In this document: positions 6,039 through 15,597 of the stretch, one piece after another | How positions within the stretch are numbered: position 1 is the first letter of the stretch | How the letters are laid out: each line of letters begins with the position of its first letter | Virus record (IMG/VR): IMGVR_UViG_3300020045_008999 | Location: 192,001 to 256,000 of that record | DNA length: 64,000 bases | From: a virus | Taxonomy: Duplodnaviria; Heunggongvirae; Uroviricota; Caudoviricetes | Reading direction: 5' to 3' (one strand) | The notes under the pieces: generated by a model | Databases searched by the model: none | What the model was told of the DNA's origin: nothing | What the model saw: only the letters and a program-made list of their open reading frames with translations | Position numbers and translations under genes: made by a program

Positions 6039-6320
6039 ATGAATAGTTATACGAAAGAATTTGTACACAATGGTCAACGCTTTAGCATTATTGTAAACTT
6101 AAACACTAAAGTTGAAAAACGAATAAATGGGGACCGATGGCATACCATTCAGTGCAACAACACAGGGCCAGGGAACTATTATGAAAAAATAGAAGTGTTA
6201 GATGCTAATTTAGAAAAATCAATAATGGATATAGAGTCCAGTGCCAAGGCGAGTGTTGATAAAATCTTGCCTAACGAAACTGAACAAGAAATCTTATTAA
6301 AGAAATTGGGATTTAAATAG
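6039..6320 (+). CDS. hypothetical protein
   Basis: Follows TAnnTTTG at 6017-6024. Confidence 0.6.
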   Translation: MNSYTKEFVHNGQRFSIIVNLNTKVEKRINGDRWHTIQCNNTGPGNYYEKIEVLDANLEKSIMDIESSAKASVDKILPNETEQEILLKKLGFK

Positions 6321-8116: not shown

Positions 8117-8461
8117 ATGATAAAAGTTATAATTAAAGTAGAAACCGATTCCGATTTCACCTTATCATTTCCTAAAAACATCACCGGATTTTATGATATA
8201 AAATATGATGGTAATTATTTTATAAAGATATGTTACGAAGAAAAAAACGCGCTGGATGGTTTAGTTGCACTATTAAGTGAAATTGAGATTAGTTCGTGTA
8301 AAGATTGGCACAGTGCTGATTTGAAAAAGGGTATAAGTGGTTACATCAACCAACTAAACACATTGGGACTTTCTAGTTCAATCTATGATTTAATAGGTGG
8401 TGGTAATTGGTCATTCACTATTGATGTTTTGAGAATAACCGAACAATACGTAACAGCATAA
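8117..8461 (+). CDS. hypothetical protein
   Basis: ORF track. Confidence 0.55.
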   Translation: MIKVIIKVETDSDFTLSFPKNITGFYDIKYDGNYFIKICYEEKNALDGLVALLSEIEISSCKDWHSADLKKGISGYINQLNTLGLSSSIYDLIGGGNWSFTIDVLRITEQYVTA

Positions 8462-8576
8462 CGCTTTACTGACAAACGAAGGTAGTTATTTGATACAAAA
8501 TAATCTTTAAATTAATCTAAAAATGAAAATATTCTTCGCATTCAAGGCCCAAATAATTGTTTATGTGGTGTTAGTT
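8456..8576 (+). other. attC-like imperfect inverted repeat
   Basis: GCATAAC at the upstream stop codon, inner arms agttatttg/caaataatt, closing GTTAGTT. Confidence 0.4.
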
Positions 8577-8792
8577 GTAGTACTTTCTGCTTGTAGAAAT
8601 TCAGATAAAAAATATCCAAGCGAAACTTCAAAATTTATCGTTACCAGAATAGAACCTAACACATTTGCCACAAGTATTTATTTGTTGGAACCAATTGATA
8701 AACAAGACTTAAATATGAATCATACTTGGATAGTTGATAGTATTGGTAAATTTACCGCTGGCGATACGCTGTCTTTTCAACATTATCGCTAA
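8523..8792 (+). CDS. putative lipoprotein
   Basis: Hydrophobic signal plus LSAC lipobox; VDSIGKF motif shared with 63206..63472. Confidence 0.65.
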   Translation: MKIFFAFKAQIIVYVVLVVVLSACRNSDKKYPSETSKFIVTRIEPNTFATSIYLLEPIDKQDLNMNHTWIVDSIGKFTAGDTLSFQHYR

Positions 8793-8919
8793 CATACACG
8801 GTTTGTTTTTCGACTGTGCAATAAATCAAATACAAGATGTTCAATAAATTGAACACAGATGGAAAGCTGGAAATCATAATTGGATAGTTGATAATATTGA
8901 AATAATTAAAAAAATAAAT

Positions 8920-10876: not shown

Positions 10877-11386
10877 ATGACTAATCCAATAATAAATAAT
10901 AGAATAGTATCATCCAAAACGTTCGCAGTTCGTTTTAAATCATTTGTCGAAAGTGTGACGGTACAAGATGCATGCGGCGAAGATGAAAAAGAAGCAATGT
11001 TAAATGTTGCCAATTCGTTATTAGTTTATCAATTACACACTATTGATGCTAATGATACGGAAGAGACTGAATATTTAGAAAGAATCGGGATATACCCATT
11101 ACTACCAATATTAGTAACTCATGATGGTGTAGAATTACATGCGAGTGAGACTGGTGCGATGGTATATTCTAGTATGATCATCCCAAGACTGGGTGATGAA
11201 GTACGCCAGCACACGGTAAAAAATTCGGATGATATTAAACGAATTAATCCAAAACGAATTATTTTTTGGAATAAAAAAGAGGCGGAATCTTATATAGAAT
11301 TCAACACTAAATCCATTTCAATACAAGATTTAATTAATGCTAATTTATACCAGGCATATGAGCAATCCAAATCCAAAGGACATTAA
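10877..11386 (+). CDS. hypothetical protein
   Basis: 169-aa ORF. Confidence 0.6.
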   Translation: MTNPIINNRIVSSKTFAVRFKSFVESVTVQDACGEDEKEAMLNVANSLLVYQLHTIDANDTEETEYLERIGIYPLLPILVTHDGVELHASETGAMVYSSMIIPRLGDEVRQHTVKNSDDIKRINPKRIIFWNKKEAESYIEFNTKSISIQDLINANLYQAYEQSKSKGH

Positions 11387-11729
11387 ATACTTAGGGGTAC
11401 CCAATGTTTGCTTTTCACTTATCGATGCCAATGATAAACGCGATGAATTGTATGCTAACCAAAGAATTGATAGAGGGTTTGACGATAGTGAGACATGGTC
11501 ATTGTCTGGAACAATGGCATCTTTTTTGTTACCAAGACTAATCCGTTTTATAAAATTGGATAATAGTGTTAGAGATGCTGAATTTATGGAAGACTTGAAT
11601 AATTTTAGAAAATTATTAGAGTTAGAAATTCGAGATAATGGTGCAAGAAATTTTACAATAGAAGAAAAAAATACAGTATCCAAAGGACTAAAGGCATTTG
11701 AGAAAATATTTTTATTATTGTGGTGGTAG
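11337..11729 (+). CDS. conserved phage hypothetical protein
   Basis: RGFDDSETWSL...FLLPRL...W motif familiar from large phages. Confidence 0.55.
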   Translation: MLIYTRHMSNPNPKDIKYLGVPNVCFSLIDANDKRDELYANQRIDRGFDDSETWSLSGTMASFLLPRLIRFIKLDNSVRDAEFMEDLNNFRKLLELEIRDNGARNFTIEEKNTVSKGLKAFEKIFLLLWW

Positions 11730-11894
11730 AAATTAGGTTATTTCCCTAATTTATATTAGATTTGTGTATAGTTTAAAAATCAGAAAATGAGCAATGTAGT
11801 AAATCACAAAGAAATATTTATAAGTGCATTATATGTATCACCAGAACAGGTGAGACATTATTTCACAAATGGTCATATAAAAGTATAATCAAAA

Positions 11895-12015
11895 GAGAAT
11901 TTTATAAAGTGATGCTGGATTTATTCGTCAGGGTTTATACAGATGCAAGTAGCTTTTTGATAACGATAAGGTAGCTATAGATGCCTATGGGTCGGTTCGA
12001 TTCCGACAATTCTCA
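11895..12015 (+). ncRNA. tRNA-like RNA with expanded core
   Basis: Acceptor stem GAGAATT (11895-11901)/AATTCTC (12008-12014) plus A; perfect T-arm GTCGG-TTCGATT-CCGAC (11991-12007); 89 nt between the 5' acceptor strand and the T-arm; no clear D or anticodon arm. Confidence 0.6.
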
Positions 12016-12034
12016 CTATTAAAAAATATAAAGT

Positions 12035-12244
12035 ATGTTTATAATACAAGTAATTGTTTTGCTCGCGATCATATTATATGTGGTGGGAAGTTGTATAAAT
12101 ATAATAGATAATCACATACCTGAATCACGTACTAGTTTAAACGCGGATCTTATGTTTAATATTGTGGGTGCAATATGCATATTTGTATTACTTTATTTCT
12201 GTGGTGCCTTTGATCAAATTTTTCCAAAAATTCACGTGTTATGA
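12035..12244 (+). CDS. small two-TM membrane protein
   Basis: Two hydrophobic stretches. Confidence 0.55.
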   Translation: MFIIQVIVLLAIILYVVGSCINIIDNHIPESRTSLNADLMFNIVGAICIFVLLYFCGAFDQIFPKIHVL

Positions 12245-12543
12245 AATCCACCACAGCTATGATAAAATATATAGTAAAATTGCATATGACTTCCACACAA
12301 GATTGTGTAAGACCTTACGTAAAAGAAGTTGTTAAAGAATCGCTAAAAGAAGCGAGAATTTTAATCAAAGACTTAAAAGTAGATTATAAAAAAGCATTCA
12401 ATATACACCAATTAGGATTTGAATATGATTATGATGGAGTTGAGAATAAAGTTTATAAAGTCATTTCAAAAACTATTGAATACGTTGGGTTAAATGACGT
12501 ACCACTAGATACTATAACTAATACACAAATAACTAATACATAA
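12241..12543 (+). CDS. hypothetical protein
   Basis: ORF track. Confidence 0.55.
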   Translation: MKSTTAMIKYIVKLHMTSTQDCVRPYVKEVVKESLKEARILIKDLKVDYKKAFNIHQLGFEYDYDGVENKVYKVISKTIEYVGLNDVPLDTITNTQITNT

Positions 12544-12548
12544 ATGTT

Positions 12549-12974
12549 ATGATTAATAAGCTGGAAAAATTGAAAGCATTTGACTTAGAACGAAAAGTAA
12601 TTTGTTCTGTGTTATCTATTGAATTATCGAGTTTGAATGGTCGCAATTTGGGAAATGTAGAACTGAACAATGGTTTGGTGACTTTTTACAAAAATTATAC
12701 CAAAGGGGATTGTGTGTTGTTGGAATTCACCGGTTATCAAGATTCAGATAAAGAAGATATTTATGATTCTGATATATTGGTCGGGGATGACATAATTTAT
12801 TTAGTGCAATGGAATCAAAACCAAACTAGTTGGTGGCTATCACCGATCCAATCACGATCTGGAGTAGATGAGATGATTTATGTAATTGACAATCAGACAC
12901 TTGGGAATGGGTATTTATCTCGCCGAGATTTAACTAAAATTGGTAACAAATATACCCATGCACATTTATTGTAA
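12549..12974 (+). CDS. YopX family protein
   Basis: LLEFTGYQDSDKEDIYDSDIL...KIGNKYTHAHLL matches YopX QxTGLxDxxGxEIYEGDI...IGNxxENPELL. Confidence 0.7.
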   Translation: MINKLEKLKAFDLERKVICSVLSIELSSLNGRNLGNVELNNGLVTFYKNYTKGDCVLLEFTGYQDSDKEDIYDSDILVGDDIIYLVQWNQNQTSWWLSPIQSRSGVDEMIYVIDNQTLGNGYLSRRDLTKIGNKYTHAHLL

Positions 12975-13006
12975 CAACACTCACCGGTATAACGGGTGGT
13001 TGGCAT

Positions 13007-13140
13007 AAACAACGTCCTGTGGCTTTGTCTTGTGCCGAAAAAAATAAGACCTAATATTTAAATTAAAAACTATTATGCCAAGTACAAAACAAAATGAAAA
13101 TTTAACCGAAAGTGACAATAAGTCAAAACCACTGTTATGT
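13007..13140 (+). other. attC-like imperfect inverted repeat
   Basis: AAACAAC...gtggctttgtcttgt (13019-33) / acaataagtcaaaaccac (13115-32)...GTTATGT. Confidence 0.5.
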
Positions 13141-13293
13141 GAGGTTATTACTTTAAAAGTAATGGATATATGGCACCCATTTATAAAAAATAGTCAACGA
13201 TGGGTTTACTCAAATGAATTTGAATCAACAACCGAATTTATAAATTGGGTAATGCAGCACCAAAAAGATTTATCAGGAGTGGTTCGTGGGTAA
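13075..13293 (+). CDS. hypothetical protein starting inside attC-like site (cassette gene)
   Basis: Body bracketed by gttatgtgaggtta (13134-47) and taatctcacataac (13291-304), 13/14 complementary. Confidence 0.55.
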   Translation: MPSTKQNENLTESDNKSKPLLCEVITLKVMDIWHPFIKNSQRWVYSNEFESTTEFINWVMQHQKDLSGVVRG

Positions 13294-13328
13294 TCTCACA
13301 TAACTTCTAAATAACTAACACATAAATT

Positions 13329-13694
13329 ATGTTATACTGTATAAACCCAGTGGAATGCCCGAATGATTCACAATGCTTAGAAGTATTGTTATTCCAAGAT
13401 CTGAATGATTTGGGGTGGAAGATCTATAGAACTCATGATTCGTTCATTATTGAATATTTAGGCAATGCCTATTTTTCCGAAAAATACTTTTCATGTTATC
13501 TCAAGTCCGGTGTTAATATTACGTTTATTAATACCAATTGTATTTTATTTAAATGTACCAGGGTTGAAGTCTTTTTAAACATAAGAGACGCAATCACCAA
13601 TAATTACACAGATGATATCTGGGAATTTTTACAAAATTTATTTACAGAACGTCTTGATCTCGACCCAACACTTATGAGCACTGAATATATGTAA
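13329..13694 (+). CDS. hypothetical protein
   Basis: ORF track. Confidence 0.55.
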   Translation: MLYCINPVECPNDSQCLEVLLFQDLNDLGWKIYRTHDSFIIEYLGNAYFSEKYFSCYLKSGVNITFINTNCILFKCTRVEVFLNIRDAITNNYTDDIWEFLQNLFTERLDLDPTLMSTEYM

Positions 13695-13706
13695 AACCCA
13701 CAATAT

Positions 13707-14264
13707 ATGAAAGATTTAATAACAATTACTACTGTACTTCATTTAGATAATCAATACGTATCATCTGATGGATTTTATGAAATAAATAAACACAGAGACT
13801 CTTTTGTTTATGATGGTATTGTATACACCTATTTATCGTCAGGGATGGCAAGAAGGGTTTATAAATCAGCATGTGGTGAATTTGTGATCAAAGTTCCAAT
13901 TGGTGGTTATTATATAGACACCGCTGAGGAAATAAAAGACTTCATAATGTCTGATATGAAAAACGTGGACCCTAGTATATCACATAACTATGGTGAAGCT
14001 AAAGCATATGAAGAATGTCCCGAGGAATTGAAAATATTTTTAGCACACACTGAGTTACTACCAAATTGTTGGGTAAAACAAGAATTTGTGGAAGTATTAA
14101 ATTGTGTATTCACCGGCCGCCACGACCTTCGAGAAATAGGCCGACGTAAAGACGGTACTCTTTGTATTTTTGATTTTGACCCATTGTTAGATGATTTTAA
14201 ATTTGATGGTTATTACTGGCCAAGACTACCAATAATCATTTCAGAAATTGAGAGTAAAATATAA
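13707..14264 (+). CDS. protein-kinase-like fold protein
   Basis: LSSGMARRVY (G-loop-like), VIKVP, N-x2-EA, DL...IG, IFDF. Confidence 0.5.
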   Translation: MKDLITITTVLHLDNQYVSSDGFYEINKHRDSFVYDGIVYTYLSSGMARRVYKSACGEFVIKVPIGGYYIDTAEEIKDFIMSDMKNVDPSISHNYGEAKAYEECPEELKIFLAHTELLPNCWVKQEFVEVLNCVFTGRHDLREIGRRKDGTLCIFDFDPLLDDFKFDGYYWPRLPIIISEIESKI

Positions 14265-14446
14265 ATACTAACAAGTAATTAAGTTACTAATACGATCATC
14301 TGTATGGAAAAAATCAGCGGTACAAATGCCTATAATCGGATTCTATACGGTTTGAAAATATACGAATATCCCGTATCGTTTTCTAATTACATGTAAGAAA
14401 TAGGTAATGGATATTTTTAAATCTAAATATTAAATAAAATTCAAAA

Positions 14447-14896
14447 ATGGAAGAACAAAAACTATCAATTAGTGGGTTGTATTACAGATATAAACAAACT
14501 TCGGATAACGATATAGAAAAACATTTAAAAACTATTAAGATAGTTGTGTTGAAAGATAATGGAATTGGTACCACTTATGGGTATTACCCACTCTCACAAA
14601 ATTCAATGGACAAAATCTTAGAAAGTCCAAGAAGTGTTTCGTTAAGTTATGATGCAACTGAAACAGATCCGGATTGTCTGGAAGGATTAAGTGAATATAA
14701 AACAATCCGTTATTTAGTTAAGTCAACATCTAGGTTTTTTCTAAAACCTGATATTGGTGAGATTTTTGATCAGATACATTATCGTGATTTATTGTCGGAC
14801 AAAATAAAGGCGATTCAATACATACCATCCGCATTGGAAACACTAGATGATACTCAAGGGGAGCATTTCATCTTGGAAGCTAAGTTACTAATATAA
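14447..14896 (+). CDS. hypothetical protein
   Basis: 149-aa ORF. Confidence 0.6.
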   Translation: MEEQKLSISGLYYRYKQTSDNDIEKHLKTIKIVVLKDNGIGTTYGYYPLSQNSMDKILESPRSVSLSYDATETDPDCLEGLSEYKTIRYLVKSTSRFFLKPDIGEIFDQIHYRDLLSDKIKAIQYIPSALETLDDTQGEHFILEAKLLI

Positions 14897-14908
14897 TCAG
14901 TAATTAAA

Positions 14909-15160
14909 ATGGAAAATAAAACTATCCCGGATAAATCTGATAAATCTGATAAATTGACTAAGGCCCGTAATGAATTCATACAGAATATGTTAGCTTGGTC
15001 AATATATTTTGTAATAACTATGATACTTTTATATCCGGTATTTACCGATGAAATCTGGATGCATATTAGTATAAGTACTATTATTAGTTTTGTGTTAGGC
15101 ATGTTTAATAAAATAATTCAATTGTTAATATGTATTGATAATAAAATCGATCCAAAATAG
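14909..15160 (+). CDS. small membrane protein
   Basis: Two TM segments; DKSDKSDK from a 9-bp tandem repeat. Confidence 0.55.
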   Translation: MENKTIPDKSDKSDKLTKARNEFIQNMLAWSIYFVITMILLYPVFTDEIWMHISISTIISFVLGMFNKIIQLLICIDNKIDPK

Positions 15161-15222
15161 TAGCCATTTATGTTGCTATTTTGGATTTTATTTATTATAT
15201 TTGTGTTCTAAATAAGTAAATT

Positions 15223-15597
15223 ATGGACACAAATACAATCAATATTGAATTGGCAAAATTTTTAGGATGGTTCCAAGACCCTGATAGTTTACCAGGTACT
15301 TGGTTTGTGATAAATGCCAATGCTAAAATAGTTATATATTCTCAGCACAATGACATCTACCAAGAACTACCATTCCACAGGAATATTAAATACCAAATTG
15401 AAATTATTGACAAAATCGAAAGTCTTGGATATGATTTCATTATAGGTGGTGGTGTGGTATCTATTAAAGTTACTAGCACAAGCCCTAAATTTTATGAAAG
15501 TTGTACTTTGTATCGAGATCGCGATCTTAGTAGATTAGATGGTATTTATTCCGAGATAGATAAATTTATTAAATTCTATAACAAAAATATCATCTAA
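15223..15597 (+). CDS. hypothetical protein
   Basis: After TAnnTTTG at 15196-15203. Confidence 0.6.
   Translation: MDTNTINIELAKFLGWFQDPDSLPGTWFVINANAKIVIYSQHNDIYQELPFHRNIKYQIEIIDKIESLGYDFIIGGGVVSIKVTSTSPKFYESCTLYRDRDLSRLDGIYSEIDKFIKFYNKNII

Follow-up and report, generated by a model that had tools for sequence, protein, structure and literature searches.

The locus lies in a phage record of 596,785 bp (32% G+C), within a long series of small ORFs on the + strand. The stretch of DNA that was analysed, here termed the window, comprises 64,000 nucleotides, bases 192,001–256,000 of that record. An ORF for a YopX-family protein (12549–12974) is followed by an ORF of 72 aa (gene 72), for which Pfam, PHROGs and the PDB hold no match, and then by neighbours to which protein family searches assigned no family. 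Gene 72 begins inside an imperfect hairpin, and its stop codon is adjoined by a sequence complementary to the right flank of that hairpin. From these features the first-pass annotation had proposed an integron-like gene cassette, and its landmarks are all in place: AAACAAC at 13007–13013, GTTATGT at 13134–13140, inner arms at 13019–13033 and 13116–13133, the start of the small ORF within the hairpin and, found by repeat search, a 13/14 reverse complement of the sequence at 13134 next to the stop codon.

Compared with the rest of the genome and with other phage contigs, the locus is best described as one copy of a repeated module, consisting of a structured junction element and a single ORF. 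Each unit reads, in order, TAAC and a short spacer, a first helix (H1), TGTTA, a 10-nt arm, one ORF, and a complementary arm ending TAAC; the two arms form a second helix (H2). The window's copy of the repeated element occupies 13011–13146, and the features of its unit are collected in Table 1, together with a second unit.

Table 1. Features of the junction element units in the window
Feature	Position	Strand	Evidence or remarks
5′ junction core: AAC and 5-nt unpaired spacer GTCCT	13011–13018	+	Conserved 5′ end in family alignments
H1 left stem	13019–13033	+	Partner 13118–13132; RNAduplex −14 kcal/mol; covaries across 18 members
H1 loop, AT-rich, with family motifs and ORF start codon at 13075	13034–13117	+	Motifs aligned across members
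H1 right stem, within ORF codons 15–20	13118–13132	+	Duplex and 18-member covariation
TGTTA, then variable 10-nt H2 left arm	13133–13147	+	TGTTA invariant; arm complementary to 13291–13304
72-aa orphan ORF, the cargo of the unit	13075–13293	+	
H2 right arm, ending TAAC, the 3′ boundary of the unit	13291–13304	+	13/14 complementary; stop codon is its first three bases
Second, more diverged unit: TAACG, hairpin, TGTTA, ORF, ...GCTAAC	8456–8793	+	

Taken singly, the 134-nt hairpin and the 13/14 repeat at this locus are at chance level. Folded as DNA, 13000–13145 has z-scores of −0.27 (+ strand) and −0.16 (− strand) relative to shuffles, a null result explained by the H1 stem of this copy, which at −14 kcal/mol is among the weakest of the family. 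Clusters of 13/14 inverted repeats at 20–300 nt spacing number 14 in the window, and dinucleotide shuffles yield 11.2 ± 3.6. Genome-wide, the arm's 10-mer is present just twice, both times at this locus. No credible match to Rfam 15 was found for 11000–15500 at E up to 10, and a distant-mode search of the INPHARED phages with 11500–15000 gave no match. Chance inverted repeats flanking an ordinary orphan gene would agree with these fold and repeat statistics, which do not exceed chance at the level of the locus. We nevertheless give that reading a vanishingly small probability and count it as already refuted: half of the eight GTT...AAC inverted-repeat pairs found blindly in the genome abut one and the same 136-nt element, and both H1 and H2 covary. 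Comparative evidence thus confirms that the hairpin and inverted repeat at the locus are real.

The blind genome-wide list, restricted to 13/14 inverted repeats with GTT...AAC ends, contains those eight pairs where 4.9 are expected, and four of them have a common, extended and conserved left context ending CTGTTA. GTTA...TAAC inverted-repeat pairs are not enriched as a class (16, with 12.5 expected); only pairs adjoining an element count. An iterated nhmmer profile of the left context finds eight solid copies in the genome (E ≤ 1e-13), and a covariance model (R1) finds 10–11 in the 597 kb. Applied to other phage contigs, R1 detects three to four tandem elements on each of L031 and L034 and one copy on L036. 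The first-pass annotation had made its reading depend in part on a family of similar AAC...GTT hairpins, and such a family is present in the genome. The second unit of Table 1, with an H1-like duplex of −17.4 kcal/mol, a weak H2 and a lipoprotein-like ORF as cargo, was missed by both the profile and the covariance model; the family therefore probably exceeds 11 copies. A fourth match to the pattern AACC[AG]CTGTTA, at genome position 291,197, has no surrounding element and was rejected as chance.

Elements are about 136–140 nt long, start near (T)AACG and end with TGTTA; those designated L031_C and L034_3 reach ∼200 nt. The TGTTA is unchanged in the eight aligned copies and in every later member read, and the junction start is AAC in the window's copy and TAAC in most family members. 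All 18 of 18 elements have the same orientation as their genes. The terminal TAAC often contains the stop codon of the upstream gene: three units end their ORF at its TAA, and the window's unit at the first TAA of the arm. Copies in the 597-kb genome are mostly solitary and dispersed. Where they form arrays, the TAAC closing one unit doubles as the first four bases of the next; in the arrays of L031 and L034 the spacer and left stem of the following element come directly after the right-arm TAAC. A local array of three consecutive elements, one of them degenerate, is present in the genome at 585,450–586,712 (L014, L020); its ORFs encode 93, 75 and 117 aa, and the one of 75 aa runs through the left stem of the element after it. 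Directly after the terminal TAAC of another unit (m185502) there is a small hairpin, AACTTGC...GCAAGTT with a 16-nt loop (genome ∼185,852–185,899; L011:553–600), which may be a remnant junction.

H1 has a stem of 15–20 bp and an AT-rich loop of 70–150 nt that often contains a start codon; in L031_C and L034_3 the loop contains the first 40–45 codons of the ORF. The bases that immediately follow the 5′ spacer pair, in each of the copies, with those immediately preceding (C)TGTTA, and the duplexes have energies of −10 to −30 kcal/mol. Across 18 members 84.5% of the cells are paired, against 62% in shuffles, a value that none of 500 shuffles reaches, and sliding the 3′ partner columns by 1–3 positions leaves only 29–45% paired. 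Of 15 stem pairs, 14 change on both sides, and one pair is G·U in 15 of the 18 members. The 18-member alignment was fitted by the covariance model and leans to its structure; the slid controls and stems read by hand agree with it. RNAalifold on a MAFFT alignment of the elements predicted no structure, because the stems there are out of register, and a hand-defined structure with a covariance-model alignment was needed. Folding of the bottom strand, which the first-pass annotation had recommended, gave no signal for the single sequence, whereas the helix itself is borne out by the covariation of the 18 members.

Pairing is possible between the AAC at the start of the element and the GTT of TGTTA, and is retained in 13–15 of the 18 members. 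A C·A mismatch recurs after the first four base pairs of H1 (in the window, C13023 opposite A13128), and the departures from pairing seen in the family are this fixed mismatch and fixed G·T wobbles, not bulged bases. H1 has no strand preference, the sense strand being more stable in just 5 of 16. The motifs in its loop are family-specific and are not general motifs or promoter motifs genome-wide; a sigma-70 scan of the + strand found no site, with a consensus that may not be the promoter type of the host.

H2 arises from the ten bases after GTTA, which are complementary to the ten bases before the TAAC at, or just after, the stop of the next ORF. In the window its arms (13134–13147 and 13291–13304) have as their lone mismatch a G·T wobble at pair 11, and this pair is G in the 5′ arm opposite T in the 3′ arm in eight independent helices. 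For the four founder copies the empirical P is ≤0.002 against 600 random GTTA anchors; among copies found without use of their repeat, m282792 gives P = 0.003 and m87411 a helix of −16.1 kcal/mol. H2 is at −16 kcal/mol or below in 9 of 16 units, on three contigs, the first percentile of the background being −15.1, and all nine of these strong helices are more stable on the sense strand. In L031_D (L031:3727–4443) an H2 of −19.7 kcal/mol brackets a 238-aa Mom-like DNA-modification gene (PF25680) whose start lies in the H1 loop. Three orthologous units with the 117-aa cargo are ∼75% conserved in loop, 5′ UTR and ORF and have entirely different stems and arms; as these are nonetheless complementary within each unit, the helices covary between orthologues.

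None of the cargo ORFs searched against Pfam, PHROGs and the PDB gave a match. For gene 72 one homologue, located on an unrelated phage contig, reaches 82% identity, and a family at 42% identity starts at residue 23; its distant homologues (L004–L009) have neither helix. Searches of IMG/VR with the 72-aa protein, both its neighbours and a 345-aa neighbour of another unit found no close relatives, and exact-pattern scans with the gene-72 core found nothing in viral contigs or metagenome contigs. The 117-aa cargo of unit m586172 has homologues 52–80% identical on other assemblies, and on L032 and L035 this ORF is present without any element. Where the ORF starts in the H1 loop, the element adds a polar stretch of ∼20 residues to the N terminus of the protein (window 13075–13140; L011:277–333; L015, − strand). 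Homologues without an element start just past this extension, those of gene 72 at residue 23 and those of the 92-aa protein at M19, whose ATG is part of the GTTATG arm. Elsewhere in the family the ATG in the loop is the start of a short upstream ORF, which crosses the right stem and the arm. After the distant gene-72 homologue on L004, positions 6212–6300 are tRNA-like, with T-loop GGTTCAATTCC and a possible GTA anticodon loop; ARAGORN on L004 called four other tRNAs and did not call this one.

Between the 597-kb genome and other contigs the common sequence is confined to single genes: gene 72 for L003; the 117-aa ORF for L031, L032 and L034, and also for L035, which has one further weak and unrelated match at genome position 221,750; and the 92-aa ORF for L036 and L037. 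Sequence comparison thus shows the units to behave as exchangeable single-gene modules, common to otherwise unrelated phage contigs. Their ends can be read from these comparisons. Gene 72 and its counterpart on L003 are ∼92% identical in DNA from ∼13114 to 13303, and the H1 loop just 5′ of the ATG is still ∼78% identical; identity ends after the TAA of the right arm (13303), the next base being C in the window and T in L003. The 92-aa unit (m185502) can be aligned in three contexts through the TAAC inclusive and is unrelated from the next base on: L036 there has a canonical next element, and the two other contigs have different sequence. At the left edge, L031_B and L034_1 are alike from TAACGG on and unrelated upstream. 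A boundary at TAA/C leaves each unit with one whole ORF, whereas a boundary at G/TT would cut off the start codons.

These boundaries bear directly on the integron reading, in which the hairpin is the attC of an upstream cassette, the following cassette starts at G/TT (13134) and an IntI-type enzyme performs the capture. Several features recommend it. The AAC...GTT hairpin is of attC-like length, the cassette has complementary ends, with a stop codon located at or within the ...TAAC motif, and integrase-less attC clusters have been reported in virulent phages (PMC9892861). If an attC is taken to be an imperfect hairpin of 57–141 nt with conserved structure and variable sequence, the element likewise keeps its structure while its sequence varies, its hairpin spanning 126 nt in the window, but the elements being ∼200 nt long in L031_C and L034_3. 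One-gene units, a closing AAC/GTT and arrays of co-oriented units complete the resemblance. The hairpin, however, belongs to the following ORF and not to an upstream cassette: it lies 5′ of that ORF and contains its start codon, so that the start at 13075 and 20 codons (∼45 codons in the loops of L031_C and L034_3) stand upstream of G/TT. The breakpoint predicted at G/TT is also contradicted by the homology with relatives, which continues well upstream of it, the sharp boundary being at the terminal TAAC. The downstream site, described as truncated after AAC, is not a shortened attC, TAAC being the normal end of a unit, and no hairpin follows the terminal TAAC in the window. The core sites G/TTRRRY and RYYYAAC are poorly matched: AAACAAC has two misfits and GTTATGT one, the bases after GTTA in the family do not follow RRRY, and the family consensus is only TAAC and TGTTA. 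The complementary ends measure 14 nt as opposed to ∼7, and the central spacer is asymmetric (5 nt versus 1–2 nt). The copies, mostly solitary, are scattered over 597 kb and not placed beside an attI. We conclude that this is not an integron, though its layout resembles one in logic; a true integron cassette is highly improbable.

The recombination enzymes of the genome point the same way. No tyrosine recombinase is encoded in the window, where the first-pass annotation had noted no integrase, and the genome's sole match to PF00589, at 108,239–108,661, lies outside the window's span. It belongs to a Xer-like protein of 209 aa, much shorter than usual integrases (L002:1330–1959; genome ∼108,068–108,697), whose best NCBIfam score is 29.7 bits, with cut-offs of at least 220. 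None of the integron-integrase equivalogs reaches its cut-off in the genome, and no IntI was found. The gene for the Xer-like protein is ∼9 kb from the nearest element copy, adjoins a gene with a polyvalent-protein domain (LPD29), and nothing ties the recombinase to the elements. A tyrosine recombinase as the capturing enzyme, which had been suggested, is accordingly left without a link to them. Of the broader idea of cassette capture, one small ORF per hairpin, complementary ends and units common to unrelated phages stand; the integron does not. The genome also has no Y1 transposase (no match to PF01797), and no serine recombinase was found in it.

Some copies bear traces of exchange with one another. 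The element on L003 is a hybrid: its left stem resembles that of m586172, its right half that of the window's copy, part of its loop is duplicated, and H1 no longer forms. On the same contig (L003:4654–5236) the gene-72 unit stands between 89-nt direct repeats (88/89 identical), duplicates of the 3′ end of the 92-aa ORF upstream. Relative to L031, L034 has an extra unit of ∼680 nt between two similar GTTA-arm segments, the switch falling ∼20 nt past GTTA. To judge from their sequences, the hybrid, the 89-nt repeats and the L031/L034 indel look like ordinary homologous recombination. The TAAT of the L003 unit is followed by a G+C-rich 10-bp hairpin and then by the GTTA that opens the second 89-nt repeat; this hairpin looks like a loop-less mini version of the junction.

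The precedent closest to such traces is that of the PeSLs of T4-type phages, repeated composite intergenic stem-loop elements that flank orphan genes in variable regions (PMC2839356, PMC4122927). Single genes are inserted, deleted or replaced when PeSLs recombine with one another, and chimeric elements and mini-circles result (PMC2839356, PMC4122927). Our elements are likewise repeated intergenic stem-loops, often with G-rich/C-rich stem tops, beside orphan genes in variable regions; they show chimerism (the L003 hybrid) and gene gain or loss (the extra L034 unit), and one unit, m185502, has different right-hand neighbours in different contigs. The reading we favour, tentatively, is that they are PeSL-like structured junctions that punctuate the message and shuffle single-gene modules. 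The junctions would be sense-strand structures punctuating a polycistronic message, H1 displaying each start codon in an open loop and the structures closing each cistron; repeated junctions with a conserved TAAC/TGTTA core would serve as the recombination places at which single genes are inserted, deleted or swapped. We favour this reading because of the sense-strand bias of H2, the conserved G·U pairs, the co-orientation with genes, the start codons in open loops and the traces of homologous recombination.

The likeness to PeSLs has limits. In our elements translation starts within a loop of 70–150 nt enclosed by the stem, the entire ORF lies between the arms of a second helix, TAAC/TGTTA forms an invariant core and the TAAC boundaries are exact; the sigma-70 promoter scan of the + strand, with its perhaps unsuitable consensus, was empty, which also weighs against the PeSL-like reading. 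PeSL hosts are T4-type, while the host of these elements is a 597-kb phage that may not be T4-like. Breakpoints are exact to the nucleotide at TAAC in m185502 (three contexts), in gene 72 (two) and at the left edge of L031_B/L034_1, and these count against the PeSL-like reading since general homologous recombination would scatter them. An invariant core, with the rest of both helices free to vary, has the look of a recombination core. The arms of H2 become contiguous with H1 only in an excised circle, H1 lacks the strand preference that H2 has, and the recurrent C·A mismatch is unusual in an RNA helix.

Several of these observations would suit a different, rather less probable explanation, in which the units would be cassettes mobilised by a dedicated, hitherto undescribed system of site-specific recombination that depends on hairpins, integron-like in logic and of a different family. 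Strand exchange would take place at TAA/C, and the enzyme would be a phage or host protein that recognises the folded strand. In the circle the right arm and TAAC would be joined to the spacer and left stem, making H2 and H1 one long imperfect hairpin, which would explain the complementarity of the arms without long-range pairing. Exact TAAC boundaries in independent contexts, a core invariant in all members, a single whole ORF per unit that only the TAA/C boundary provides, and solitary unit insertions in unrelated genomes all argue for such a system; the constancy of the mismatch and wobble positions is reminiscent of the structural features that mark attC, and folded attC sites and attC clusters occur in virulent phages (PMC9892861). 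Against it, the only candidate tyrosine recombinase is the 209-aa Xer-like protein with no tie to the elements, neither Y1 transposases nor serine recombinases were found in the genome, and the L003 and L031/L034 rearrangements suggest homologous recombination. The 117-aa ORF also occurs element-free (L032, L035), H2 favours the sense strand, and all elements are co-oriented with transcription.

Two known arrangements share part of this logic. The CTX-φ attP hairpin used by XerCD is a recombination site formed only by the folding of one strand. A recombination site in our elements could also arise only on strand folding, and the genome encodes a small Xer-like recombinase; unlike the CTX-φ site, the elements have no conserved dif-like arms, and nothing connects the recombinase to them. 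Morons are single accessory genes cleanly inserted between neighbours and common to unrelated phages, and are defined by their own promoter and terminator. The cargo genes are likewise single accessory genes, inserted cleanly and common to otherwise unrelated phages, but they differ from morons in being marked by a conserved covarying hairpin and an ORF-bracketing helix.

Mobility by single-strand transposition was also weighed. On this view the units would be non-autonomous IS200/IS605-type transposons (PATEs), mobilised in trans by a Y1 HUH transposase for which a subterminal hairpin and short cleavage sites serve as recognition signals. In its favour, H2 is more stable on one strand, the imperfect hairpin is subterminal and has a mismatch at a fixed place, one tetranucleotide recurs at left flank and right end, and the junctions are precise. 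We consider it very unlikely all the same: no Y1 transposase (PF01797) is present in the genome, each unit has a single hairpin rather than one per end, and the loop is very large and contains coding sequence. Tandem arrays with a common TAAC are, moreover, not known as a pattern of the IS200/IS605 family. A group I intron, a retron, a ribozyme pair, a rolling-circle origin nonanucleotide in the loop and a dif-like Xer site were each considered and dropped, no feature supporting them.

Firmly established, whichever reading is preferred, are a family of structured junctions with two covarying helices, and single-gene modules with an exact TAAC end that are common to unrelated phages. The means by which phages gain and reshuffle their numerous small orphan genes have long been an open question, and mechanisms with recognisable sequence signatures are few: morons, PeSLs and, rarely, parts of integrons. 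The present elements have a signature that can be searched for, in an invariant TAAC/TGTTA core, two covarying helices and one gene per unit, and the family marks single-gene modules truly common to unrelated phages. It offers a means to delimit accessory genes in very large phage genomes, and the mechanism of exchange, as well as any role in the transcript such as processing or start-codon display, becomes directly testable. Should the dedicated system prove true, it would be an undescribed form of folded-strand recombination in large phages, an integron analogue that is mechanistically separate. Single genes with their own start signals would then travel as small circles between unrelated phages, with a site assembled from the hairpin and the two complementary ends of the unit, and exchange at TAA/C.
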